Program-made: the position numbers and the translations under genes
Shown here: in pieces, positions 5,856-29,469 of the stretch
How positions within the stretch are numbered: position 1 is the first letter of the stretch
Layout: each line of letters opens with the position of its first letter
From: a virus
Lineage: Duplodnaviria > Caudoviricetes
Reading direction: 5' to 3' (one strand)
IMG/VR virus record: IMGVR_UViG_3300033076_001007
Location: 1 to 37,680 of that record
DNA: 37,680 bases
Notes under the pieces: model-generated
Databases searched by the model: none
What the model was told of the DNA's origin: nothing
What the model saw: the letters and a program-made list of their open reading frames with translations, nothing else

Positions 5856-6266
5856 CTACTGCCCGTACCACCAGGCGCGGACATCAAACGAGGGGCACGC
5901 CTTCGCGTCGGTCCAGTCGCGGTGTCCGCTGACCTTTGCTTCCGGGTGGCTGACCAGCAGTTGCTTGACCAGGTGCTCGAGCGCCTGCCACTGAGACCGC
6001 GTGAAGTTTGCGTCCGGCTTGCCGGCGTCGTTGATCCCGCCGACCACGCAGATCCCGATCGAGTCCTGGTTGTGCCCGGCGACGTGAGCTCCGGCAATGT
6101 AGTCGCTGCGACCCTTCTCGATGTCACCGCTGCGCCGGATGACGTAGTGGTAGCCAATGGCATTGAAACCGCGGGCCAAGTGCCACTCGGCGATTTCCTT
6201 CGCACCTATGTCCATTGTCGGCTTCGTTGCCGAGCAATGAATTATCACCCGCCTTATTTCCCGCAT
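5856..6266 (-). CDS. Endolysin, N-acetylmuramoyl-L-alanine amidase (T7 lysozyme-like, Amidase_2)
   Basis: IIHCSAT, IGYHYVI, GAHVAGHN..SIGIC..GG and GHRD...KACPSF zinc-amidase motifs. Confidence 0.95.
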   Translation of the reverse strand: MREIRRVIIHCSATKPTMDIGAKEIAEWHLARGFNAIGYHYVIRRSGDIEKGRSDYIAGAHVAGHNQDSIGICVVGGINDAGKPDANFTRSQWQALEHLVKQLLVSHPEAKVSGHRDWTDAKACPSFDVRAWWYGQ

Positions 6267-6820
6267 GGAACCGCCGCGTTATCATTGCATCATGGAAACA
6301 TGGCTACAAATCAAAGGGTTCCCGGGGTACGAAGTATCCGACCACGGGCGCGTTCGCAGCGTTTCGCGTTACGTGATTCGTAACGGTTCCCAGATGCGGG
6401 TCAAGGAAACCATCCTGAAGCCTCGCGCCCTGCAGAAGGGCCACCTATATGTGAATCTTCGCAAGGACGGAAAAGCCACCAGCGCATACGTTCACAGGTT
6501 GGTTGCTCTGGCGTTTATTGAGCCGCCGGACGCAACCCGAACTCATGTCGCCCACTGGGACGGCGACCCATCAAACAACCACGTTTCCAATTTGAGATGG
6601 GCGACGCCAGCCGAGAACAACGCCGACTCTATTCGCCTTGGGCGCAATAGAAGGCCATCAGGCGAGAAAAGCCGGCACGCAAAACTCACCCGAGCAATCA
6701 TCGCCGAGATGCAGATGCGAAATGCCTCTGGAGAAAGCATTCGATCAATCGCGAAACGTGTCGGCGTGTCTCATACGACGGCACGCGCCGCGATCATCGG
6801 CAAACGTTACAAAGACGAAG
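6228..6820. mobile_element. Free-standing homing endonuclease cassette carrying a recoded endolysin 5' end
   Basis: Peptide MREIRRVIIHCSA is encoded on both sides of the HNH gene (6228-6266 and 6821-6859). Right junction is at 6820/6821; the left boundary is uncertain and may extend to about 6155. Confidence 0.8.
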
Positions 6821-6837
6821 CGCCGAGCAGTGGATGA
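6292..6837 (+). CDS. NUMOD4-HNH homing endonuclease, antisense to the lysis operon
   Basis: METW..IKGFPGYEVSDHGRVRS (NUMOD4), VHRLVALAFI..HWDGDPSNNHVSNLRW.T..EN (HNH) and a C-terminal HTH-like segment. Start placed at 6292 rather than 6265. Confidence 0.92.
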   Translation: METWLQIKGFPGYEVSDHGRVRSVSRYVIRNGSQMRVKETILKPRALQKGHLYVNLRKDGKATSAYVHRLVALAFIEPPDATRTHVAHWDGDPSNNHVSNLRWATPAENNADSIRLGRNRRPSGEKSRHAKLTRAIIAEMQMRNASGESIRSIAKRVGVSHTTARAAIIGKRYKDEAPSSG

Positions 6838-6859
6838 TCACGCGGCGGATCTCTCTCAC
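6821..6859 (-). pseudogene. Stranded original 5' end (13 codons) of the endolysin gene
   Basis: GTG AGA GAG ATC CGC CGC GTG ATC ATC CAC TGC TCG GCG = MREIRRVIIHCSA. The GTG overlaps the upstream stop (GTGA); the frame then reads LRLCNVCR and stops at 6794-6796. Confidence 0.88.
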
Positions 6860-7131
6860 TTGTCCACCTTGCCGTCGAGCTTGCCGTCGATCTGATCGAG
6901 CTTGCGCACCAGGCGCGCCTCAAGAGAATCCATGCGCTGCGCGAACTCGTCCTTGCGGACGTAGTCGCCGGCGACCAAGACCTCGATGCGCCCGACCTTC
7001 TCGGCGAGCTTCTGGTCCTGCGCGTGGAGCTCGTTGACAGATTTCCACACGGTATTGAGCCACCACCCGCCAGCGGCTCCGAAGATGCCGATGACTATGT
7101 TGAACAAGTGTTGCCAGTCGACCTGAGTCAT
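6856..7131 (-). CDS. 91-aa single-TM plus coiled-coil lysis-cassette protein (holin/antiholin-like)
   Basis: Hydrophobic LFNIVIGIFGAAGGWWL followed by a charged coiled coil; coupled to its neighbours. Confidence 0.75.
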   Translation of the reverse strand: MTQVDWQHLFNIVIGIFGAAGGWWLNTVWKSVNELHAQDQKLAEKVGRIEVLVAGDYVRKDEFAQRMDSLEARLVRKLDQIDGKLDGKVDK

Positions 7132-7398: not shown

Positions 7399-7425
7399 AA
7401 AAAAGAAAACCCGGCAGGGCCGGGT
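7399..7425 (-). terminator. Intrinsic terminator, tR'-like
   Basis: Minus strand ACCCGGC-CCT-GCCGGGT followed by TTTCTTTTTT. Confidence 0.8.
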
Positions 7426-7453
7426 CGTAGAGACAGTTCTAGTTGTGACCGAT

Positions 7454-11961: not shown

Positions 11962-14016
11962 TTATTCTTCTGCCTCGGTTTCTGTGTCCCAGTCAGGGCG
12001 CCAGACCCGGTGCTTCACCCGGCCTGCGTCGTCAGCCCAGCGCACGATCAGGCCCGACTCCATGAGCTCTTCCATTGCCTTCTCAAAAGCCGAAACGCTG
12101 GTGGTCTTCCACTTCCGCAACTGGTTGGAGATCCGGCTGAACTCAAGCGGCGCGTACTCTTTGCTCTGCTTGTGCAGCGAGTAGTACTGCTCCTGTCTGC
12201 GTTGGCGCTCAAGGATCGCAAGGAAGTCCAGCCTGGACTGCTCGTCCATCTTGGTAGCCAGGTCGATTTGGGCGGCCGGCAAAAGGAACCCGCCGTCGAT
12301 CCAGGTCTCGACCTCTGTACCGCTCGCCGCGTGGTTCGACTTCATCAGGTCGAACGTCACCTTCTGGCTTTGTGGGTTCTCCCGGTGCATGTAGATCTGC
12401 GCGCGTGCGGTGTCACGCCAGGCGTTTCCGCCGGAAAGGCCGGACCCGCTTGCCTTGCCCTGCACAGAGACGTGGGCGAGGAAGACGGCAGCCAAGCTGA
12501 ACTTCTGCGCCAAACTGGTCAGGCACCGCTGAACGAACTGACGCGCCTGAGAGTTGTTGATCTCCTGCCCGGCGAAGACGTCGCCGCGGGTGTCGACCAC
12601 GAGGAGATCCACGCCGAGATCTTCAATAAGGTCGTGAATCTGATACCAGAACGGAGTCAGGGCTCCGACGTCCTTCTGGTCGAACGTCATCAGGTAGTTG
12701 TCTTCCCCGACCCGGCAAAGGATATAGATCGATCCTTTGATTGATTCCCAGGTCAGGTTGTACCGCTGCAGGATTCTTTGAAGGCGACCGTTGACGATGT
12801 CGATGTCGTCTTCGCAGAACAGTAGGAGTGTCTTCCCATAGGCGGGGACGTTGCCGTCTATGAAGGCCACCTGCGCGGCGCGGCAAACCGCCAACTGAAG
12901 GAACGCCTGACTCTTCCCGGTGCCGCCTTCGGCGAAGCATCCAGTTGTGTAGCCTTTGGGGATCCACCCTTCCCAGACCCACTCGACCGGCTTGATTGGC
13001 CGCGCCTGTAGCTCGCTCGCCTCGATTGGATGAAGCTTCGGACGAAGCTCTCTCGCGACCGCGGCCTGCACGTTGGTGCCGGGCTCAAGAGGCACCGGCT
13101 TGTCGGGGTTGTTGTCCAGGTGCGTCCGTATGGTCGAGGCGACCGTGGTCAGCAGTTCGCCCTCGGACAGCGGGTTAGCTCTGCCGCGCTCGTCCAGGTT
13201 GCGTGCGTTCTGATCTTTGACGATCTCGAGAATCTCCCTCAGAGACTTGCCCGCCGTGATCAGCGAGCCGGTCAACTGGTTGGTTCGGCTGTTCCTCCCC
13301 TTCCCGACCACGCCGTCCTCGAAGTCGACGCGCGGAGCGACCTGGGTGGCATCGAACGCGAGATTGCCGGGCCCGGAGAACAGGCCCGAGTTCCGCTCAA
13401 CCTTGCCGTTGAACGCGTGGACCTCTGCCTGGTCCCGAGCGGTCAGCATGGTGAGCTCGGACGGGTCGTCGCTGTAACCGTCAGCGATCCGCAGCCGATA
13501 CCGCTGACCGCTCGCATGCATCGAGCCCGGCGCGATGATGTAGCCGCCGTTGCCGCGAACGTCCAGCTTGTGAGTCTCGCCGACGCCGGTCTTCCACGGC
13601 GCGTCCGGGTTCGGCCGGTATAGGTGGTGCTCTCCGCGCGGGGTCTCGGAGACCCAGACCGCGCGAGTGATGCGGCCGCTGTTCAGGAACTCGACCGACT
13701 CGGGGTCGTCTCCGTCGAGGGCAACGACCCCCGTTGATTGTCCTGTTATCAGGGCCCAGTTGCAGTGCGGGAAGCGGCGTTCCCAGGCATCCATCTCCTG
13801 ATCAGTAGGCTGCCGCTCCTGGAACTCCTTCCAACCGACCAGCGGCGTCTTCGGCCACCGGCTCGCGGCTTCGGCCTGATCGCCGCCGCAGCGGTCGAGG
13901 AACCATTTAGGGATCGGCAGCAGAGGAGATCCGCACGGGACCAAGTGAAAGCCGCGCTCGTGCAGCCATCTGGCAGTCAGTAGCGCCTCGTCGTCCCCCT
14001 CCTCAAGAGCCATCAT
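11962..14016 (-). CDS. Bifunctional primase-polymerase fused to RepA-like AAA helicase
   Basis: Prim-Pol motifs K.PLVGWKEFQ, NWALITG..GVVALDGD, TPRGEH and DVRGNGGYIIAPGS; PriCT-like GRN; Walker A AEGGTGKS and Walker B LLVVD. Confidence 0.92.
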   Translation of the reverse strand: MMALEEGDDEALLTARWLHERGFHLVPCGSPLLPIPKWFLDRCGGDQAEAASRWPKTPLVGWKEFQERQPTDQEMDAWERRFPHCNWALITGQSTGVVALDGDDPESVEFLNSGRITRAVWVSETPRGEHHLYRPNPDAPWKTGVGETHKLDVRGNGGYIIAPGSMHASGQRYRLRIADGYSDDPSELTMLTARDQAEVHAFNGKVERNSGLFSGPGNLAFDATQVAPRVDFEDGVVGKGRNSRTNQLTGSLITAGKSLREILEIVKDQNARNLDERGRANPLSEGELLTTVASTIRTHLDNNPDKPVPLEPGTNVQAAVARELRPKLHPIEASELQARPIKPVEWVWEGWIPKGYTTGCFAEGGTGKSQAFLQLAVCRAAQVAFIDGNVPAYGKTLLLFCEDDIDIVNGRLQRILQRYNLTWESIKGSIYILCRVGEDNYLMTFDQKDVGALTPFWYQIHDLIEDLGVDLLVVDTRGDVFAGQEINNSQARQFVQRCLTSLAQKFSLAAVFLAHVSVQGKASGSGLSGGNAWRDTARAQIYMHRENPQSQKVTFDLMKSNHAASGTEVETWIDGGFLLPAAQIDLATKMDEQSRLDFLAILERQRRQEQYYSLHKQSKEYAPLEFSRISNQLRKWKTTSVSAFEKAMEELMESGLIVRWADDAGRVKHRVWRPDWDTETEAEE

Positions 14017-16923: not shown

Positions 16924-17682
16924 ATGGCGATCTCACTCAACAGCATCAAGCGCACGACCGCGATCAGCGCGCCGCGCATGCTCGTCTACGGCGAAGCAGG
17001 CATCGGCAAGACGACGTTCGCGGCCGGAGCACCGCGCCCCGTCTTCGTCTTTACTGAGGACGGCGCCGGCACCTTGACCGTCGACTCGTTCCCGAAGGCG
17101 AACTCCTTCGCCGACGTGATGGACGCGATCGCAGCCCTGTACTCGGAAGAGCACGACTACGAGTCGATCGTCGTCGACTCTCTCGATCATCTCGAACCGC
17201 TGATTTGGGCCGAGGTTTGCGCCCAGCACGGCATCCGCTCGATCGAGGAGATGGGGTACGGCAAGGGCTACATGGAAGCTATCGCGTACTGGCGTCAGTT
17301 TCTCGACGGCCTGAACGCACTGCGCGATCACAAGGGAATGTGCGTGATCCTGATCGCGCACCACCAGATCCGCCGGTTCGAAAGCCCGGAGCATGACTCG
17401 ATCGATCGCTATGACATCAAGTTGCACGCCAAGGCGTCTGCGCTGGTGCAGGAGTCGGTCGACGTGATCGGGTTCGCGAAGCCGCGCGTCGTGACCAAGG
17501 TCGAGAACCTGGGCTTCAACCAGACGCGCACGCGCGGCGTGTCTACTGGCGAGCGCGTGCTCGCGGTCGTCGGGACCGCCGCATACGTCGCCAAGAACAG
17601 ATACGCATTGCCGGCGGAACTCCCGCTGACATGGTCCGCACTCGCGGACGCAATCTCCGCTGCCAAGCAGGCAGCGGCTTAA
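16924..17682 (+). CDS. AAA_24 / Sak4-like ssDNA-annealing ATPase
   Basis: YGEAGIGKTT Walker A, IVVDSLD Walker B, LIAH, AKNRY. Confidence 0.9.
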   Translation: MAISLNSIKRTTAISAPRMLVYGEAGIGKTTFAAGAPRPVFVFTEDGAGTLTVDSFPKANSFADVMDAIAALYSEEHDYESIVVDSLDHLEPLIWAEVCAQHGIRSIEEMGYGKGYMEAIAYWRQFLDGLNALRDHKGMCVILIAHHQIRRFESPEHDSIDRYDIKLHAKASALVQESVDVIGFAKPRVVTKVENLGFNQTRTRGVSTGERVLAVVGTAAYVAKNRYALPAELPLTWSALADAISAAKQAAA

Positions 17683-17706
17683 CCAAAGACCGAGGAGAAC
17701 GACACT

Positions 17707-18204
17707 GTGGCAATCCTTCAATTTGACGCAACCACCGTCCAGCCGAACGCACCGCTGGAACCCGTCCCGAGCGGAGACTACCTCTGCATGATCGTGGATT
17801 CCGAGATGAAGCCGACCTCGCGCGGCGACGGCGCGTACCTGCAACTGACGATGGAGATCCTCGAGGGGCCGTACCAGGGTCGCAAGCTGTTCGACCGTCT
17901 CAACCTGCAGAACCCGAACGCGCAGGCGGTCGAGATCGCGTACCGCACTCTGTCGGCGATCTGCCACGCGGTCGGTCGTCTGCAGGTCAACGACTCCGCG
18001 GAACTGCACGACAAGCCGCTGATCGCCAAGGTCGCGCTGAAGCCGCCGAAGGGCGAGTACGGCGAGAGCAACGAGGTCAAGGGCTACAAGGCAGTCAACG
18101 GTGCGGTCGGCATGACCGGCGTCGCGACGCGGTCCCCGACCTACCCGCAGCCTGGCGTTGCGCCCGCGGCTCCCGCCGCTGCATCGCGCCCCTGGGCCCG
18201 GTGA
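17707..18204 (+). CDS. DUF669 single-stranded DNA-binding protein
   Basis: PVPSGDY...K....G.YLQLT.EILEGPYQGRKLFDRLNL...NEVKGY and PW tail; GAGGAG RBS. Confidence 0.88.
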   Translation: MAILQFDATTVQPNAPLEPVPSGDYLCMIVDSEMKPTSRGDGAYLQLTMEILEGPYQGRKLFDRLNLQNPNAQAVEIAYRTLSAICHAVGRLQVNDSAELHDKPLIAKVALKPPKGEYGESNEVKGYKAVNGAVGMTGVATRSPTYPQPGVAPAAPAAASRPWAR

Positions 18205-19244
18205 TGGCGGCCCTGCCGCAACAGGAGAGCACGCTCGCGGCGATCGACCGAGCGGTGGAGCGGGAGGCCGACGACGGCCTCCGCTACCACCTGGGGGCGT
18301 CCGTGATCGGCGACGAGTGCGACCGCAAGCTCTGGTACATATTTCGCTGGGTCGGGGCGGAATCCAAGAGCGGGCGCATGCTGCGCCTGTTCGACCGCGG
18401 CGCGCGAGAAGAGGAAGCATTGATCGGCTGGCTGCGCAAAGCCGGCGTCACGGTCTGGGACCGCGACCCGGCGAGCGGTCAGCAGTTCAGAGTGAGCGAG
18501 ATCGGCGGCCACTTCGGCGGCAGTCTCGACGGCGTGGCGATGGGAATCATCGAGGCGCCAGAGAAGCCGCACGTTCTTGAGTTCAAGACCATGAACGAGA
18601 AGTCGTTCAACAAGCTGCAGAAGGTAGGCGTCGAGAAGGCGCAGCCGAAGCACTTCACGCAGATGCAGATCTACATGGAGCTCATGGATATTGAGCGCGC
18701 CTTCTATCTGGTGGTCTGCAAGAACGACGACCGCCTGTACGCCGAGCGGGTGCGCCGGTCCGCGACGGTGGCGCGTCAGGCGCTGAAGAGAGCTGAGCGG
18801 ATCATCACGAGCGATCGGCCGCCGGCCAGGATCTCGGACGACCCGACCCTGTACGTCTGCAAGTTCTGCGATTACCGCGAGCACTGCCACGTCGAGGCGA
18901 CGCCGCTCGCGAACTGCCGGACCTGCATCCATTCGACGCCGGAGCTCGACGGGCACGGCCGGTGGTCATGCTCCCGGCACTTCAAGGATCTGACCGAGAA
19001 AGAGCAACGCGCCGGTTGCCCGACGCACTTGTTCATCCCCGAGTTGATCGCGAAGTGGGCAGAGCAGCACGACGCCGACGACGGCAACGTCTATTACGTC
19101 AACAAGCTAACCGGCAACAGGTTCGCGAACGGGCCGGACGGTTACCTGTCGAGCGAGATCGCGGCGGCGTCTGACGTGCGCGTGATCGGCGCATACGAGA
19201 CAGAAGAACTGCGACGCGAGTTTGGGGGCGAGGTGGTTGGATGA
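18201..19244 (+). CDS. PD-(D/E)XK (Cas4/RecB-like) exonuclease
   Basis: HLGAS.IG.EC.R.LWY, GSLDG, LEFKT, QMQIYM, CKFCDY..C. Confidence 0.9.
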   Translation: MMAALPQQESTLAAIDRAVEREADDGLRYHLGASVIGDECDRKLWYIFRWVGAESKSGRMLRLFDRGAREEEALIGWLRKAGVTVWDRDPASGQQFRVSEIGGHFGGSLDGVAMGIIEAPEKPHVLEFKTMNEKSFNKLQKVGVEKAQPKHFTQMQIYMELMDIERAFYLVVCKNDDRLYAERVRRSATVARQALKRAERIITSDRPPARISDDPTLYVCKFCDYREHCHVEATPLANCRTCIHSTPELDGHGRWSCSRHFKDLTEKEQRAGCPTHLFIPELIAKWAEQHDADDGNVYYVNKLTGNRFANGPDGYLSSEIAAASDVRVIGAYETEELRREFGGEVVG

Positions 19245-20860
19245 TGAAGCTGCGCGACTACCAGATCGATGCCGTCAACCGAGTCTGGTCCTGGTTCGAA
19301 GAGGGCGGCGGCCACGGCTTGTGGGTGCTGCCAACCGGGGCGGGCAAGTCTCTGATCATCGCAGAGATCGTTCGGCGCGTGATTGCGCCGGACCTTGGCG
19401 ATCGAATCCTGATGCTCACGCATGCCAAAGAACTTATCGCGCAGAACCTCGACAAGCTTCTGACGATCTGGCCTGACGCACCTGCCGGCGTCTACGCGGC
19501 AAGCCTGCGCCGTCGAGAGGCGTACATGCCGATCGTCTACGCGTCGATCCAGACGGTTTGGAAGCGCGCCCATGAGCTCGGCAAGTTCAGTTTGATCATT
19601 GTCGACGAGGCGCACCTGATCCCGACCAAGGGTCAGACCATGTACCGGCGCTTCCTCGACGAGGCGATGCGGATCAATCCGCAACTCAAGATCATCGGGT
19701 TGAGCGCGACGCCGTACCGGCTCGACAGCGGGCTGCTCCACACCGGTCCTGACGCGTTGTTCGACGGCATCGCATTCGATTTGCCGCTCGGCGATCTGAT
19801 CGACCGGGGCTACCTGGTCCCGCTCCATAGCAAAGGGACGCTGCGGCGCATCAACCTCGACGGGGTCCGCACCCGGCTCGGCGAGTACGTTGCGGCGGAT
19901 CTCGACCGCGCTGTCCACGAGGACGGGCTGACGGCCGCAGCGGTGACCGAAGTGATTCAGTGGGGGCAGGACCGCAAGGCGTGGCTCCTTTTCTGCAGCA
20001 GCGTCGACCATGCCTACGAGGTGCGAGACGAACTGCGCTCGCGCGGGATCACTGCAGAGACGGTCGAGGCAGACACGCCGCATCACGAGCGTGACGACAT
20101 CCTCGAGCGGTTCAGGCGCGGCGAGATCCGCGCGCTGACCAACATGTCAGTCCTGACTACCGGGTTCGACGCGCCGATCGTCGACCTGCTGGTCATGCTG
20201 CGACCGACACAGTCGACGAGTCTTTTCGTTCAGATGGCTGGCCGCGGCATGCGTACCGCGCCAGGGAAGACAGATTGTCTCGTCTTGGATTTCGCCGGCA
20301 ACGTCCTGCGTCACGGGCCGGTCGACGCGGTGCGTCCGCGCGACAAGGTGCCGGGCCAGGGTGGCGGCGTTGCGCCGCAGGGAAAGACCTGCCCGTCGTG
20401 CTCGACGATCGTCCACGCCAGCGTGCGGATCTGCCACGTCTGCGGCTACGCGTGGCCCACGCCAGCGAAGCACGAGGCGACGGCGACCGAAGCTCCTGTT
20501 CTGTCAAGCCAGATCAGGCCGGAATGGATGTCGGTCAAGGACGTGTATTACCGGCGCCACCGGAAGGTCGGCAAGCCAGACAGTCTGCGCGTCGACTACG
20601 TCTGCGGGCTGCGGATGGTGACCGAGTACGTCTGCCTCGAGCACATCGGCTACGCGCGAACGAAGGCGCTGCAATGGATAGAGCGGAGAGACCCGACCGG
20701 GACCGTGAACAGTGTCGGAGACGCTCTGCGCCTGTCGCACAAGCTGCGCAGGCCGGTCGAGATTCTTGTCAGGAGAGAAGGACAGTATGACCGCGTCATC
20801 AATTGGAGATTTGACAGCGAGACGAACTCAGCGGATTCAGGAAGCCATGCGGCGGCTTGA
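19241..20860 (+). CDS. SF2 DEAD/DEAH-type helicase (RadD/YejH-like) with zinc finger
   Basis: LRDYQ, LPTGAGKS, DEAH, SATP, TTGFD, QMAGRGMR, CPSC..CHVC. Confidence 0.93.
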   Translation: MMKLRDYQIDAVNRVWSWFEEGGGHGLWVLPTGAGKSLIIAEIVRRVIAPDLGDRILMLTHAKELIAQNLDKLLTIWPDAPAGVYAASLRRREAYMPIVYASIQTVWKRAHELGKFSLIIVDEAHLIPTKGQTMYRRFLDEAMRINPQLKIIGLSATPYRLDSGLLHTGPDALFDGIAFDLPLGDLIDRGYLVPLHSKGTLRRINLDGVRTRLGEYVAADLDRAVHEDGLTAAAVTEVIQWGQDRKAWLLFCSSVDHAYEVRDELRSRGITAETVEADTPHHERDDILERFRRGEIRALTNMSVLTTGFDAPIVDLLVMLRPTQSTSLFVQMAGRGMRTAPGKTDCLVLDFAGNVLRHGPVDAVRPRDKVPGQGGGVAPQGKTCPSCSTIVHASVRICHVCGYAWPTPAKHEATATEAPVLSSQIRPEWMSVKDVYYRRHRKVGKPDSLRVDYVCGLRMVTEYVCLEHIGYARTKALQWIERRDPTGTVNSVGDALRLSHKLRRPVEILVRREGQYDRVINWRFDSETNSADSGSHAAA

Positions 20861-21832: not shown

Positions 21833-22071
21833 TGGGCGACTTCAACGAACCGGCTTATCCGCACAACGAAACTGACCACGCTCACGGCGCAACGTCTACT
21901 CGTAAGCCCGGCCTCACCATCCGCCAGCAGGCGGTGCTGATGGCGATGCAGGGGATTGCGTCTAACCCCATGTTCAATCCAACGCGACAAGAGCATTTTG
22001 ATAATGCCGCTATTGACGCGATTCTACTGGCCGATGCCGTGCTCCGCGCTGAGAGGGAGATCAGGGAATGA
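21829..22071 (+). CDS. 80-aa phage protein (PAYP..GLTIR..AMQG family)
   Basis: GGAGG RBS; EPAYP...GLTIRQQAVLMAMQG...ADAVLRA. Confidence 0.8.
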   Translation: MMGDFNEPAYPHNETDHAHGATSTRKPGLTIRQQAVLMAMQGIASNPMFNPTRQEHFDNAAIDAILLADAVLRAEREIRE

Positions 22072-22301
22072 AAACCGCCGAAGCAGTTGAGATTTGCAAA
22101 CGGCTGGCAGAGGGCCTAACCATCCGCCAGCAGGCGGTGCTGATGATGGCGGCGGCAATGATTAAAGCGGGAGCGCCCATATTCAACAGCGAGGAGGAAA
22201 TACGCGCCTACGGTGACGCCGCTTGCGATTGGGCCGACATAGTACTTCGCGCCGAGAGGGAGAGCAGGGAATGAAAACCGCCGAAGCAATTGAGATTTGC
22301 A
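21910..22301 (+). repeat. Diverged tandem duplication of about 203 bp
   Basis: ACCATCCGCCAGCAGGCGGTGCTGATG and GAGAGGGAGAnCAGGGAATGAAAACCGCCGAAGCAnTTGAGATTTGCA each occur twice, about 203 bp apart. Confidence 0.85.
22068..22274 (+). CDS. 68-aa chimeric protein
   Basis: N-terminus MKTAEAVEIC shared with the next gene; GLTIRQQAVLM..VLRAERE shared with the previous gene. Confidence 0.75.
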   Translation: MKTAEAVEICKRLAEGLTIRQQAVLMMAAAMIKAGAPIFNSEEEIRAYGDAACDWADIVLRAERESRE

Positions 22302-22504
22302 GAGGGTGGCTTTCCTATCTTGACCGACAGCGAGCACAAGCCAAACGGTTGGCAGAACTCGCACGAATGGCGCGGGAGGGGAAGGCGGAAGAGGCGCAGA
22401 AAGAACTGCGGATGATGGATCGCTCCCCGGTCGTATACGACGGTGCAGAGTTGGAAAAAGCAGTCCGTCAGTTGCTCAAAGAGAGGGAGAGCAGAGATGA
22501 GTAA
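22271..22504 (+). CDS. Hypothetical 77-aa protein
   Basis: MKTAEAIEIC start; ATGA overlap; GGAG RBS. Confidence 0.75.
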   Translation: MKTAEAIEICRGWLSYLDRQRAQAKRLAELARMAREGKAEEAQKELRMMDRSPVVYDGAELEKAVRQLLKERESRDE

Positions 22505-23568: not shown

Positions 23569-23855
23569 TCCTGACTGAACAGGAACTAGCCGAACTCACC
23601 GGGAGGGTGAGGCCACAAGCCCAAGCCCGAGAGTTAGCACACCTTGGCATACCGTACAAGCGGCGACGGGACGGGACGATTGTGGTATTGCGTGCGGACA
23701 TATCGGCAGGGAGTCCGCAGGAGCCGATCCTGCGGCTAAGGAATGCGTCCGCGAACAAAGGACCGGCACCTACCTCGATGCGTGTATCAACGCCACGGGG
23801 CGTACTGGTACGTCAGCAAGGGGAAGTGGACCCGACTGGGGCGCGAGCTCGGTGA
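23565..23855 (+). CDS. DUF4224 excisionase-like protein
   Basis: LTEQELAELTG....AQ...L...GIPY....DG...V; directly upstream of and overlapping the integrase. Confidence 0.8.
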   Translation: MILTEQELAELTGRVRPQAQARELAHLGIPYKRRRDGTIVVLRADISAGSPQEPILRLRNASANKGPAPTSMRVSTPRGVLVRQQGEVDPTGARAR

Positions 23856-24723
23856 GGCGCTGCAGGCGTATGCAGCTATCGTCGAGTCTCGCCCTGCCTG
23901 CACCGGGATGCCCGGTCTGATCGACCGCGTGCTCGAGCACATCCGCCCCCGCCTCTCCGCCGCCACCGTCACGCAGTACGAAGCCGCCGCGCGATACCTG
24001 CGGGACGTGTTTGCCGAGTTCCAGCCGGACCAGGTGCTGCCGCGCCACATTGCCGCCATCAAGGTCGATCTCAGCGCCACGCCGAACATGGCGAACCGGG
24101 TGCTCAGTTTCGCGCGCCAGGTGTTCGCGTTCGGCCTCGAATGGGGCGAGGTCGACAGCAACCCCGCGGTCGGGATCAAACGGCACAACGAGCGGAAGCG
24201 CGCCCGCTACATCACCGACGACGAGTACCGGGCGATCTACGCTCACGCGCCGGAGCGCCTTCAGGTCGTCATGGACCTGCTCTACCTAACCGGCCAGCGC
24301 GTCAACGACGTCCTGGCGCTCAAGTGGTCGGCCGTCAGCGAGGCTGGCATCGCTTTCCAGCCGTCCAAAACGGCCGCGAGCACAGGTGCGCGGTTAGTGG
24401 TAAAGGCGTCCCCTGCGCTCGCCCAGGCGCTCGCGCGGTGCAACGGCCGGGGCTACCTGATCGAAGGGCGCTGGGGCAGCCGGGTTGATTACCGCTCGGT
24501 GGTCGAGCAGTGGCGGGCGGCATGCGAGCGGGCCGGGGTCGCAGATGCGCAGCTTCGGGATCTGCGGGCGAAGTCCCTGACGGACGCAAAGGCGCAGGGG
24601 CTGGACCCTACAGCGCTGGCGGCGCATCACTCCCCGGCTATGACGGCGCGGTACATTCGGAGAAGGGAAACGCCGGTGGTCGAGGGGCCGCTGTTACAAA
24701 CTGATACAAAAAAGACCTTGTAA
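23743..24723 (+). CDS. int: Tyrosine integrase
   Basis: R.LP..VY..HGAYWYV N-terminus; catalytic TGQR, K(T), RDLR, H and T.RY. Confidence 0.92.
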   Translation: MRPRTKDRHLPRCVYQRHGAYWYVSKGKWTRLGRELGEALQAYAAIVESRPACTGMPGLIDRVLEHIRPRLSAATVTQYEAAARYLRDVFAEFQPDQVLPRHIAAIKVDLSATPNMANRVLSFARQVFAFGLEWGEVDSNPAVGIKRHNERKRARYITDDEYRAIYAHAPERLQVVMDLLYLTGQRVNDVLALKWSAVSEAGIAFQPSKTAASTGARLVVKASPALAQALARCNGRGYLIEGRWGSRVDYRSVVEQWRAACERAGVADAQLRDLRAKSLTDAKAQGLDPTALAAHHSPAMTARYIRRRETPVVEGPLLQTDTKKTL

Positions 24724-27513: not shown

Positions 27514-29469
27514 TCAGGTTGTCATGTACTCGAGGTATGACCCTTCGTAAAGGGTCACACTAGCTGCTGCTGTCTGCGTATTCTGAGCGAATGCTATCTT
27601 GAACACGCCGCCACTTGCTCCTACCCGCAGGTATATATCTTCGTAAACCACGGAATCCCCAGTGACTGTCGCTAAAAGCGTCTGGTCCGCGCTGTCGAAT
27701 GCGGTAGACGGCGCAACCGTAGGGAATGTCGCTGAGGTTCCGGCAGGAACGGAGTAAGTACGAACCCTGAAAACACGAGTAGTTGTTCCGGCGTGAGTGA
27801 CGCGGTACTTGATGTCTGCGGTCGAGTTTCCGCTGTTGAACAAGCATCTAAGGCGAATGTGATAGTTAGTGTTAGCGCTTGTTGTAAATTGCAGGTACGT
27901 AGAATCCGTCAGTACCGCAGAGTTCGTTACCTGCTGGTCATCGGTCGCAGTTACCATCGTCCACGGGTTAGTTGCTACCGTAGCGAATGTCGGAGCAGAT
28001 GACGCCCCGCTCGACTGGAGAACCGTGCCGCTCGCGCCTAGAGCAAGTTCGACAACCTGACCAGATCCGTTGCTGTAAAACACTCGCCAGTTGTTTGCGG
28101 TGTGATCGCTGGTAGATGTGATCGCATGACTTTGCGCGTGAGCGTTGATCGTTACCGAGTCGCCAGTAGCGTCGGTCGTCATCGTCACGCCAGTTCCAGC
28201 GACCAGGGTCAAGGTGTCAGACGTCGAGTCCGCCACGACGTTGCTCTGCCCGCTTACGGCAATCGTTCCGAACGCGTTGGCTGGCGCGGCGAAGGTCGGG
28301 GCGGAACTTGCGCCGCTTGAAGTTAGAACGGTGCCGTTTGCCCCAAGAGCCAACTCGACTACGGCGTTCGTCCCGTTGGAGTAGAAGACTTTCCAGTTGC
28401 CTGCAACATGGTCTGTTGTAGACGTCATATTGTGGGCTTCAGCGTGTCCGGCTATCGTGACTTCGTCAGTCCCCGCGCTGGTCGTCAGCGTGATGCCGGT
28501 TCCGGCCACAAGCGTAAGAGTGTCTGACGTGCTGTCGGCCACCACGTTGGATTGACCAGACACCGCCACCGTGCCAAACGCGTTGGGAAGAGCGGAGAAC
28601 GTCGGAGCAGTGGCCGCGCTGCTGGAGGTCAGAACCGTGTTGGCCGCCCCCAGAGCGAGCTCTTGAACAAGCCCATCCGCGTCGCTATAGAAGACCTTCC
28701 ACAGGCCCGCGCTATGATCGCTGACACCGGTCATAGCGTGAGTGCGCAAATGCCCGGCCACCGTCACCGTGTCTGTTGCGGCGTCGGTGGTCAGAGTGAT
28801 GCCGGCTCCTGCCGCCAACGTGAGCGTGTCCGCAGCGGCGTCAGCAACCACGTTGCTCTGACCGCTGACCGCGATCGTGCCAAACGCGTTTCCACCGCCG
28901 CCTGGTTGGTCATACCAACCTTTCACTCCGCTGCCGTTGGTGCCGTATAGCTTGGAGTTGCCAGGCGCCGACGCGTCTCCAGACAGCTTCAGTCCGCTCG
29001 CGTCCGACGTCACCGACATCTGCGTGATGGCATCCGCGCTGACCTGCTGACCTGTGAGAGTCAGGTTGATGGTGCTCGAGTCAGCCACCGTGACTGCGTC
29101 GTGCAGTTGCGCGTGCGTATGGTCGCCGGCAGCAACAGTGCCGGCCGTCGTTCCGGTATTCAGCGTGGCAGAGTTACCCAAACCAAGGGTCGCCCTCTGC
29201 GCGATATTGTCAGCGTCATCGAGCAGTGCCTTGCCGGCGGTGGTCACGTCGCCACCCATCTTGGCGGTGGTCACCACACCGTTGTCGATCGTCCAGGTTG
29301 CGCCTGACCCGCTGACGGTGATGTCGCCTTTGTCGCCGTCACTCAGGGTTCCGCCGGTCGAGGTCGTCGCCGGCAGGAACGGAGACACGATCCGGTAATC
29401 GATCGAGACCGGCCGCATCCTGTTTCCGGCGCGGCCCGTCTTGGTTGGCTTTGTGGGTCTGCGTGCCAT
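27514..29469 (-). CDS. Tail fibre-like protein with three 102-aa tandem repeats (651 aa)
   Basis: LSDGDKGDITV..TIDNGVVT..K, GKALLDDA...QRATLGL and GTVAAGDHTH fibre motifs. Confidence 0.85.
   Translation of the reverse strand: MARRPTKPTKTGRAGNRMRPVSIDYRIVSPFLPATTSTGGTLSDGDKGDITVSGSGATWTIDNGVVTTAKMGGDVTTAGKALLDDADNIAQRATLGLGNSATLNTGTTAGTVAAGDHTHAQLHDAVTVADSSTINLTLTGQQVSADAITQMSVTSDASGLKLSGDASAPGNSKLYGTNGSGVKGWYDQPGGGGNAFGTIAVSGQSNVVADAAADTLTLAAGAGITLTTDAATDTVTVAGHLRTHAMTGVSDHSAGLWKVFYSDADGLVQELALGAANTVLTSSSAATAPTFSALPNAFGTVAVSGQSNVVADSTSDTLTLVAGTGITLTTSAGTDEVTIAGHAEAHNMTSTTDHVAGNWKVFYSNGTNAVVELALGANGTVLTSSGASSAPTFAAPANAFGTIAVSGQSNVVADSTSDTLTLVAGTGVTMTTDATGDSVTINAHAQSHAITSTSDHTANNWRVFYSNGSGQVVELALGASGTVLQSSGASSAPTFATVATNPWTMVTATDDQQVTNSAVLTDSTYLQFTTSANTNYHIRLRCLFNSGNSTADIKYRVTHAGTTTRVFRVRTYSVPAGTSATFPTVAPSTAFDSADQTLLATVTGDSVVYEDIYLRVGASGGVFKIAFAQNTQTAAASVTLYEGSYLEYMTT
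27973..28890 (-). repeat. Three tandem 306-bp coding repeats
   Basis: NAFGT(I/V)AVSGQSNVVAD begins at 28890, 28584 and 28278. Confidence 0.9.

Follow-up and report, generated by a model that had tools for sequence, protein, structure and literature searches.

Comparison with an uninterrupted relative indicates that a cassette of 593 bp interrupts the T7-type amidase (endolysin) gene of this phage after codon 13. We consider it probable (about 0.7) that this insert is a splicing-free homing cassette, whose endonuclease would nick empty endolysin alleles at their 5' end, and recombination would then copy the cassette into them. The window, i.e. the whole stretch of DNA that was analysed, is a linear virus record of 37,680 nucleotides. 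The features of the locus are the following:

5856..6266, minus strand: intact T7-type N-acetylmuramoyl-L-alanine amidase (endolysin), 136 aa; Pfam Amidase_2 8e-18
6228..6266, minus strand: replacement amidase start; the 13 residues of the stub are kept, 10 codons are changed
6228..6820, no strand assigned: inserted cassette, 593 bp, consisting of HNH gene, 25-nt spacer and replacement start; absent from the empty allele L001
6268..6285, plus strand: inverted copy of stub codons 4-9, 16/18 nt; candidate operator
6292..6837, plus strand: NUMOD4-HNH endonuclease gene, I-HmuI-like, 181 aa; Pfam NUMOD4 5e-12, HNH_3 7e-8
6821..6859, minus strand: stranded native amidase start (stub), 13 codons; 34/39 nt identical to L001
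6856..7131, minus strand: upstream gene (phrog_462) of 91 aa, whose stop codon TGA is overlapped by the GTG that starts the stub

The initial annotation had described a 13-residue start that is encoded twice on the minus strand, and its positions, identical peptide and codon difference all hold: the two starts agree in 13/13 residues, differ in 10/13 codons and 12/39 nt, and are separated by 593 nt from start to start. The stub frame begins VREIRRVIIHCSA, with its GTG start lying within the GTGA overlap with the 91-aa gene (7131-6856). It runs on for 8 further codons inside the cassette and stops at 6796-6794, which bears out the coupled start and the early end after 21 codons. Equally correct was the statement that the HNH gene ends in the antisense of the stub, which supplies its final 4 2/3 codons together with the stop (at 6837). 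Downstream, the intact amidase matches phrog_822 (1e-64) and T7 lysozyme (1LBA, 6e-41). Its His10 is the same residue in 18/18 close homologues, and this N-terminal histidine is presumably the zinc-binding residue of the T7-type Amidase_2 fold. A terminator-like hairpin (7408-7426, minus strand) stands upstream of the lysis cluster and is also found in L001.

Elsewhere in the window, genes for an integrase, a primase-polymerase/AAA protein, an AAA protein, a Cas4-like nuclease and a helicase (23743-24723, plus strand; 11962-14016, minus strand; 16924-20860, plus strand) make a temperate phage likely. At 21910-22306 (plus strand) a small gene-sized unit occurs in two tandem copies 203 nt apart, with stretches of 85-97% identity. 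Three 306-nt repeats (28139-28890, minus strand) lie in a 651-aa gene (27514-29469) and are likely tail-fibre modules.

Empty alleles of the predicted kind do exist. In L001, whose amidase is 83% identical, the same upstream gene end stands directly before the amidase, the GTGA coupling is kept, the Ala-13 codon runs straight into Thr-Lys-Pro, and the codons are stub-like: 34/39 nt are identical between L001 and the stub and 26/39 between L001 and the replacement start. Among codons for the same residue, 10/11 differ from L001 in the replacement start, compared with 4/11 in the stub (p=0.024) and 40/93 in the gene body (p=0.003), a comparison that rests on this single empty allele. Because of this comparison and that with the contigs described below, we regard the stub as native and the replacement start as part of the insert, which on this alignment comprises at least 6228-6820. 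The earlier claim that atypical codons continue to about 6155 is supported in one respect and not in another. Codon adaptation of codons 14-37 is indeed low (0.57 vs 0.78 for the remainder of the gene), but their synonymous difference from L001 is ordinary (5/14 vs 35/79 further downstream). The ATA at amidase codon 20 is also present in L001, and the protein encoded by the stretch to ~6155 is variable among all relatives.

The arrangement is no assembly artefact, because the 6820/6821 junction is spanned by contigs from other studies: identity is 99% or more in runs X2 and X3, which may represent a single data set, and 97% in X5. Another run, X1, may be the one from which the record derives. 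In 4/4 other runs, contigs match the upstream gene and the stub, the match ending exactly at 6821. Two X5 contigs connect 6821/6822 to 6155/6159 with ~72-75 letters between, the length expected of an empty allele with one extra codon. A further occupied allele occurs in the same run (6554-6904; ~97% identical, with 11 differences in 351); its HNH frame is intact and 4/6 listed HNH changes are silent. This brings the occupied alleles of this cassette to two in all. Their cassettes are ~98% identical and their amidase bodies 96%, which is little excess. Near other amidase loci a related HNH gene was found in 0/105 cases.

The longest ORF of the HNH gene starts at 6265, but the ATG at 6292 is more likely to be the start, because homologues begin at a METW-like sequence; it lies 25 nt from the ATG of the amidase, in opposite direction. 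A confident structure model (pLDDT 94) contains NUMOD4 and HNH domains followed by a C-terminal helical DNA-binding domain, as in the I-HmuI family, and I-HmuI itself (1U3E) is the sole significant PDB match, by sequence (1.9e-8) as well as by fold (3.5e-8). Residues of the catalytic set are well kept in homologues: His88 in 80/80, Asn100 in 79/80 and Asn109 in 80/80. The Asp that precedes the catalytic His in I-HmuI is Ala87 here, as it is Ala in 59/80 homologues, and activity of the enzyme is for this reason presumed rather than evident. Asp112, present in 76/80 homologues, may substitute for the missing Asp. The closest protein relatives among the matches listed are 52-59% identical, and a search of viral contigs with the HNH sequence alone found no relatives. 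The closest viral relatives among the matches listed are also located at lysin starts. In L027 and L028, by comparison with 8 close empty alleles, the HNH gene takes the lysin ATG and the lysin restarts within the HNH 3' end. In L029 the HNH gene directly precedes a T7-type amidase.

How such a cassette might move can be sketched as follows. The enzyme would recognise a site around codons 4-16, likely including CCGCCGCGTnATCAT, and nick near the conserved IHCSA codons. Repair would then copy the cassette in, joining it to the recipient's stub on one side and to its amidase body on the other; the stub would look native because repair uses the recipient's own start. The occupied allele would escape cutting, since the stub would retain no downstream half-site and, with 5/15 motif positions changed, the replacement start would be an immune copy. 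The amidase would now be translated from its own ATG and not by coupling, the start brought by the cassette keeping its frame whole. One caution against this sketch is that I-HmuI and I-HmuII cut occupied and empty alleles alike (PMC3428280, excerpt).

Splicing would be one alternative, as relatives of I-HmuI are usually encoded in group I introns (PMC3428280, excerpt). It is, however, very improbable that the insert is a self-splicing intron or intein that joins the stub to codon 14. An Rfam search of the insert gave no intron match even at E up to 5, no in-register position combines an exon U with an intron-terminal G, only 64/593 nt of the insert lie outside the HNH frame, and the downstream amidase frame is already whole. 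A group I intron was therefore rejected, for want of a ribozyme core, an exon U, a terminal G and space outside the ORF. An intein or a ShiLan-type insertion was rejected as well, because the stub frame is closed after 21 codons and neither form of read-through could pass the insert in the host reading frame. RNA folds at the cassette junctions are not better than those of shuffles, and an Rfam search of 6 other cassette loci found no intron. The initial annotation had proposed an insertion without splicing, and Rfam, splice-site register and reading frames alike give splicing no support. A different doubt is whether the cassette still moves. It could be a one-off insertion with a short duplication that is now passive, its nuclease inactive or aimed elsewhere and its alleles spread by ordinary module exchange. 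The Ala in place of the I-HmuI Asp fits such a history, as does the fact that the cassette is barely more identical than its flank in the one other occupied allele. Free-standing HNH enzymes also often cut far from their own gene, the free-standing enzymes of T4 hundreds to thousands of bases away (PMC2988022, excerpt). We nevertheless find a passive insert unlikely, given that the HNH frame is undamaged and its changes are mostly silent, that an inverted target-like motif precedes the HNH start, that sister cassettes are nearly identical across diverged hosts, and that the insertions of different cassettes adjoin conserved motifs (IHCSA; PRGIRN; QLSQ(F/Y)DKC). Homing-like spread is apparent from the alignments for the sister cassettes only, and an active homing cassette remains our preferred reading.

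The layout is not restricted to this locus. Among the matches listed, 251 related HNH loci were given for a flank screen; 15 were dropped for short flanks or lack of a match, which left 236 usable loci in 122 clusters at 80% identity. A score of at least 60 was reached by 5/122 clusters (own locus included) and by 0/500 mismatched-flank controls, and the stub and replacement start studied here score 75. At a score of at least 45 the figures are 9/122 clusters vs 6/500 mismatched controls. On reading 16 loci by eye, we accepted the layout in 12/121 other HNH clusters among the matches listed, with the reservation that several of the 12 accepted loci score below 45 and few were compared with empty alleles. 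Stub and replacement are found at 5' ends in eight loci (L085, L050, L096, L394, L032, L138, L177, L396) and at 3' ends in four (L035, L117, L129, L174). L362, L030 and L078 were rejected on reading by eye. L132 is a repeat at the DNA level and was not counted as a cassette; its 29-nt direct repeat (995-1025 and 1730-1760) flanks the HNH locus without a clear coding role and is possibly a duplicated non-coding target.

The sister cassette L085 sits in a lysin-like gene unrelated to this amidase, and its HNH gene is antisense in the same arrangement. Of 40 loci of this type, 6 carry the HNH gene, in 4 distinct host alleles with differing upstream genes. The 605-nt cassette is 99.7-100% identical, compared with 81-94% for lysin codons 101-233 between distinct alleles, and the lysin tree, read without a formal one-clade test, splits the occupied alleles. 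A scar allele, L402 (1140-1240), has stub and replacement start adjacent and has lost the HNH gene. In L401 (555-625) a second, older stub (MKALPRG...) stands just upstream of the stub, and the lysin start is seemingly present three times. In L032, L138, L177 and L396, four diverged HNH genes each carry, as an in-frame 5' extension, the first 10-12 codons from one and the same ASCH-like gene family, and the target gene restarts in the HNH 3' end. L441 from E. coli represents an empty-type allele of that gene family; the L138 cassette was found in 0/5426 E. coli genomes. In L394 (1445-1510 and 2030-2100) the HNH gene is joined to the initial 21 codons from a methyltransferase-like gene and a replacement start is present; the database proteins P0037, P0057 and P0085 have an N-terminal extension similar to that of the L394 HNH.

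Among eight cultured-phage HNH loci read (of 235 records), seven had no such layout. Mycobacterium phage McGuire (MG962372; L447, 777-1560) carries a sense cassette in a Cas4/RecB-like exonuclease gene. Its stub has the sequence of the empty PinkPlastic and Nhonho alleles, and its HNH 3' end encodes the recoded exonuclease start in another frame. This cassette occurs in 16/367 matching records of cluster A mycobacteriophages (14 phage names), and in the three read, the cassettes are 99.3-99.7% identical vs 97-98% for the body. In the McGuire annotation, gp72 is the dead exonuclease stub and gp71 the HNH protein, and L451 and L453 are listed likewise. The recoded start lies upstream of the annotated ATG of gp70, so that the gene as annotated likely lacks a conserved Cys motif. 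There is no ATG ahead of the recoded copy, for which a GTG or TTG further up may serve as start.

Besides stub and replacement start, the locus holds a third, inverted copy of the target. Its core CCGCCGCGTTATCAT (6271-6285) matches the stub in 14/15 nt and the replacement start in 10/15, and the copy ends 6 nt before the HNH ATG. At up to two mismatches the core motif has two sites in the window, namely the stub and the inverted copy, and 0/7382 other 25-mers of the window match as well as the inverted copy does. From this analysis, the motif at 6268-6285 is likely an operator through which the HNH enzyme would repress its own gene. This reading is attractive because I-TevI of T4 represses itself via a target-like operator at its own promoter (PMC2988022, excerpt). 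A scan for sigma-70 promoters passed none. If it is an operator, the inverted motif would point to the recognition site of the enzyme. The odds are nevertheless not far from even that the motif is a relic of cassette formation with no regulatory role, left either by an earlier sense-oriented cassette with its stub or by a fold-back duplication centred on the start codon. Sense-oriented cassettes do have their stub directly before the HNH start (L032, L138, L177, L394, L396, McGuire), the inverted likeness continues past a 4-nt gap to the Cys codon, and an operator-like copy is absent from the two other cassettes checked (L085, L050). On the other hand, 14/15 native bases survive in the motif, whereas most synonymous sites of the coding copy have changed, and a neutral relic of like age should presumably have decayed. 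The homing mechanism sketched above treats the changed codons as those of an immune copy, but the cassette could be just as mobile if its odd codons had not been selected against cleavage, and we rate this as a serious possibility, somewhat short of even. The codons could then stem from a diverged foreign amidase allele or be A/U-rich for uncoupled initiation, and A/U-rich codons would also keep the start from pairing with the inverted motif in the leader. If stub codons followed the real leader, the RNA would fold at -35.5 vs -25.8 kcal/mol for the actual start, so that divergence would be favoured for initiation alone. Furthermore, codon adaptation as low as that of the replacement start occurs in 3/28 gene starts of this genome, other cassettes have replacements that differ in amino acids too, as a foreign allele would, and for the fungal hybrids foreign origin is the published reading (PMC3630166, excerpt). 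Against this, all 13 residues equal those of the stub, yet the exact peptide occurs in only 1/17 close amidase homologues. An exact-match scan of viral contigs, a weak one, found no donor-type allele, and the folding of the real start is typical of random synonymous draws, of which 62% fold as weakly. In the peptide shared by the McGuire copies, 7/7 four- or six-fold codons differ and 0/7 two-fold codons do. Measured against genome usage, the excess of changes (at least 9/12 codons) is only modest (p=0.026), and codon likelihood gives p=0.004.

The usual view is that homing nucleases gain access to conserved sites of essential genes from within introns or inteins, neither of which is required by a cassette with a spare gene end. 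Tentatively, and with less confidence than we have in the cassette itself, we suggest that homing cassettes without an intron form a common, so far undescribed class in phages, that they cut at conserved codons close to gene ends and have a replacement end recoded under selection by their own nuclease, and that a cycle of empty, occupied and scar alleles rewrites the starts of essential genes. If this is true, the target is held three times, as native stub, immune recoded copy and inverted operator, and the genome itself reveals the recognition site. The layout was seen in about one tenth of the related HNH loci sampled; such cassettes would drive synonymous divergence and mosaic gene ends in phages, and they account for stub genes and miscalled starts in genome annotations. 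Since cultured Mycobacterium smegmatis phages exist with (McGuire, SarFire) and without (PinkPlastic, Nhonho) a similar cassette, a homing cross is feasible. In the literature searched (few subscription papers, main texts only) we found no description of the layout in phages, and the excerpts available of PMC10448857, PMC2248197, PMC3984707 and bioRxiv 2025.01.02.630785 do not describe it.

Among systems in which a mobile element supplies a gene end, SXT in prfC gives its target gene a new 5' coding end, like the cassette described here. SXT-type elements are, however, large and integrase-driven and do without nuclease-driven gene conversion. A gene-splitting HNH gene, which we take to be Aeh1 mobE in nrdA, is splicing-free like our cassette. 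In that case, unlike here, two working halves remain (PMC10448857, excerpt). The hidden HNH of ShiLan in actinophage methylases is also an insertion inside a phage gene without splicing, but it is read through in frame (PMC11855218, excerpt), whereas in our phage the 5' fragment is dead and a duplicated start takes over. With I-HmuI (1U3E; PMC3428280, excerpt) the cassette shares the NUMOD4-HNH architecture and the C-terminal helical domain; it differs in having no intron and an Ala for the Asp before the catalytic His. The seg and mob genes of T4 are likewise free-standing nuclease genes without splicing, and some T4 insertions bring replacement promoters for the displaced neighbour. They lie between genes and their enzymes cut at a distance (PMC2988022, excerpt), whereas our cassette sits after codon 13 and replaces coding codons. 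The I-TevI operator resembles the inverted motif as a target-like sequence upstream of a nuclease gene (15/20 nt, compared with 14/15 or 16/18 here). I-TevI is, however, a GIY-YIG enzyme of an intron with an experimentally established operator (PMC2988022, excerpt), and here there is a sequence match alone, with no promoter passing the scan. The closest parallel, by which the layout is known in kind, are the mORF gene hybrids of fungal mitochondria, described for atp6 of Allomyces macrogynus and for atp6, atp9, cox2 and nad3 of Glomus (PMC3630166, excerpt); an N-terminal duplication of atp9 is mentioned in PMC7487136 (excerpt). There too, a free-standing endonuclease gene lies inside an essential gene, carries a replacement end and does without splicing, and the displaced native end is kept and matches empty relatives, as the stub does here (34/39 vs 26/39 nt). 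The fungal mORFs encode LAGLIDADG or GIY-YIG enzymes, are mitochondrial and mostly exchange C-termini (PMC3630166, excerpt), in contrast to an antisense phage HNH gene that replaces a 13-codon start with identical protein. Thus, the cassette works like the fungal mORFs but is no member of them.
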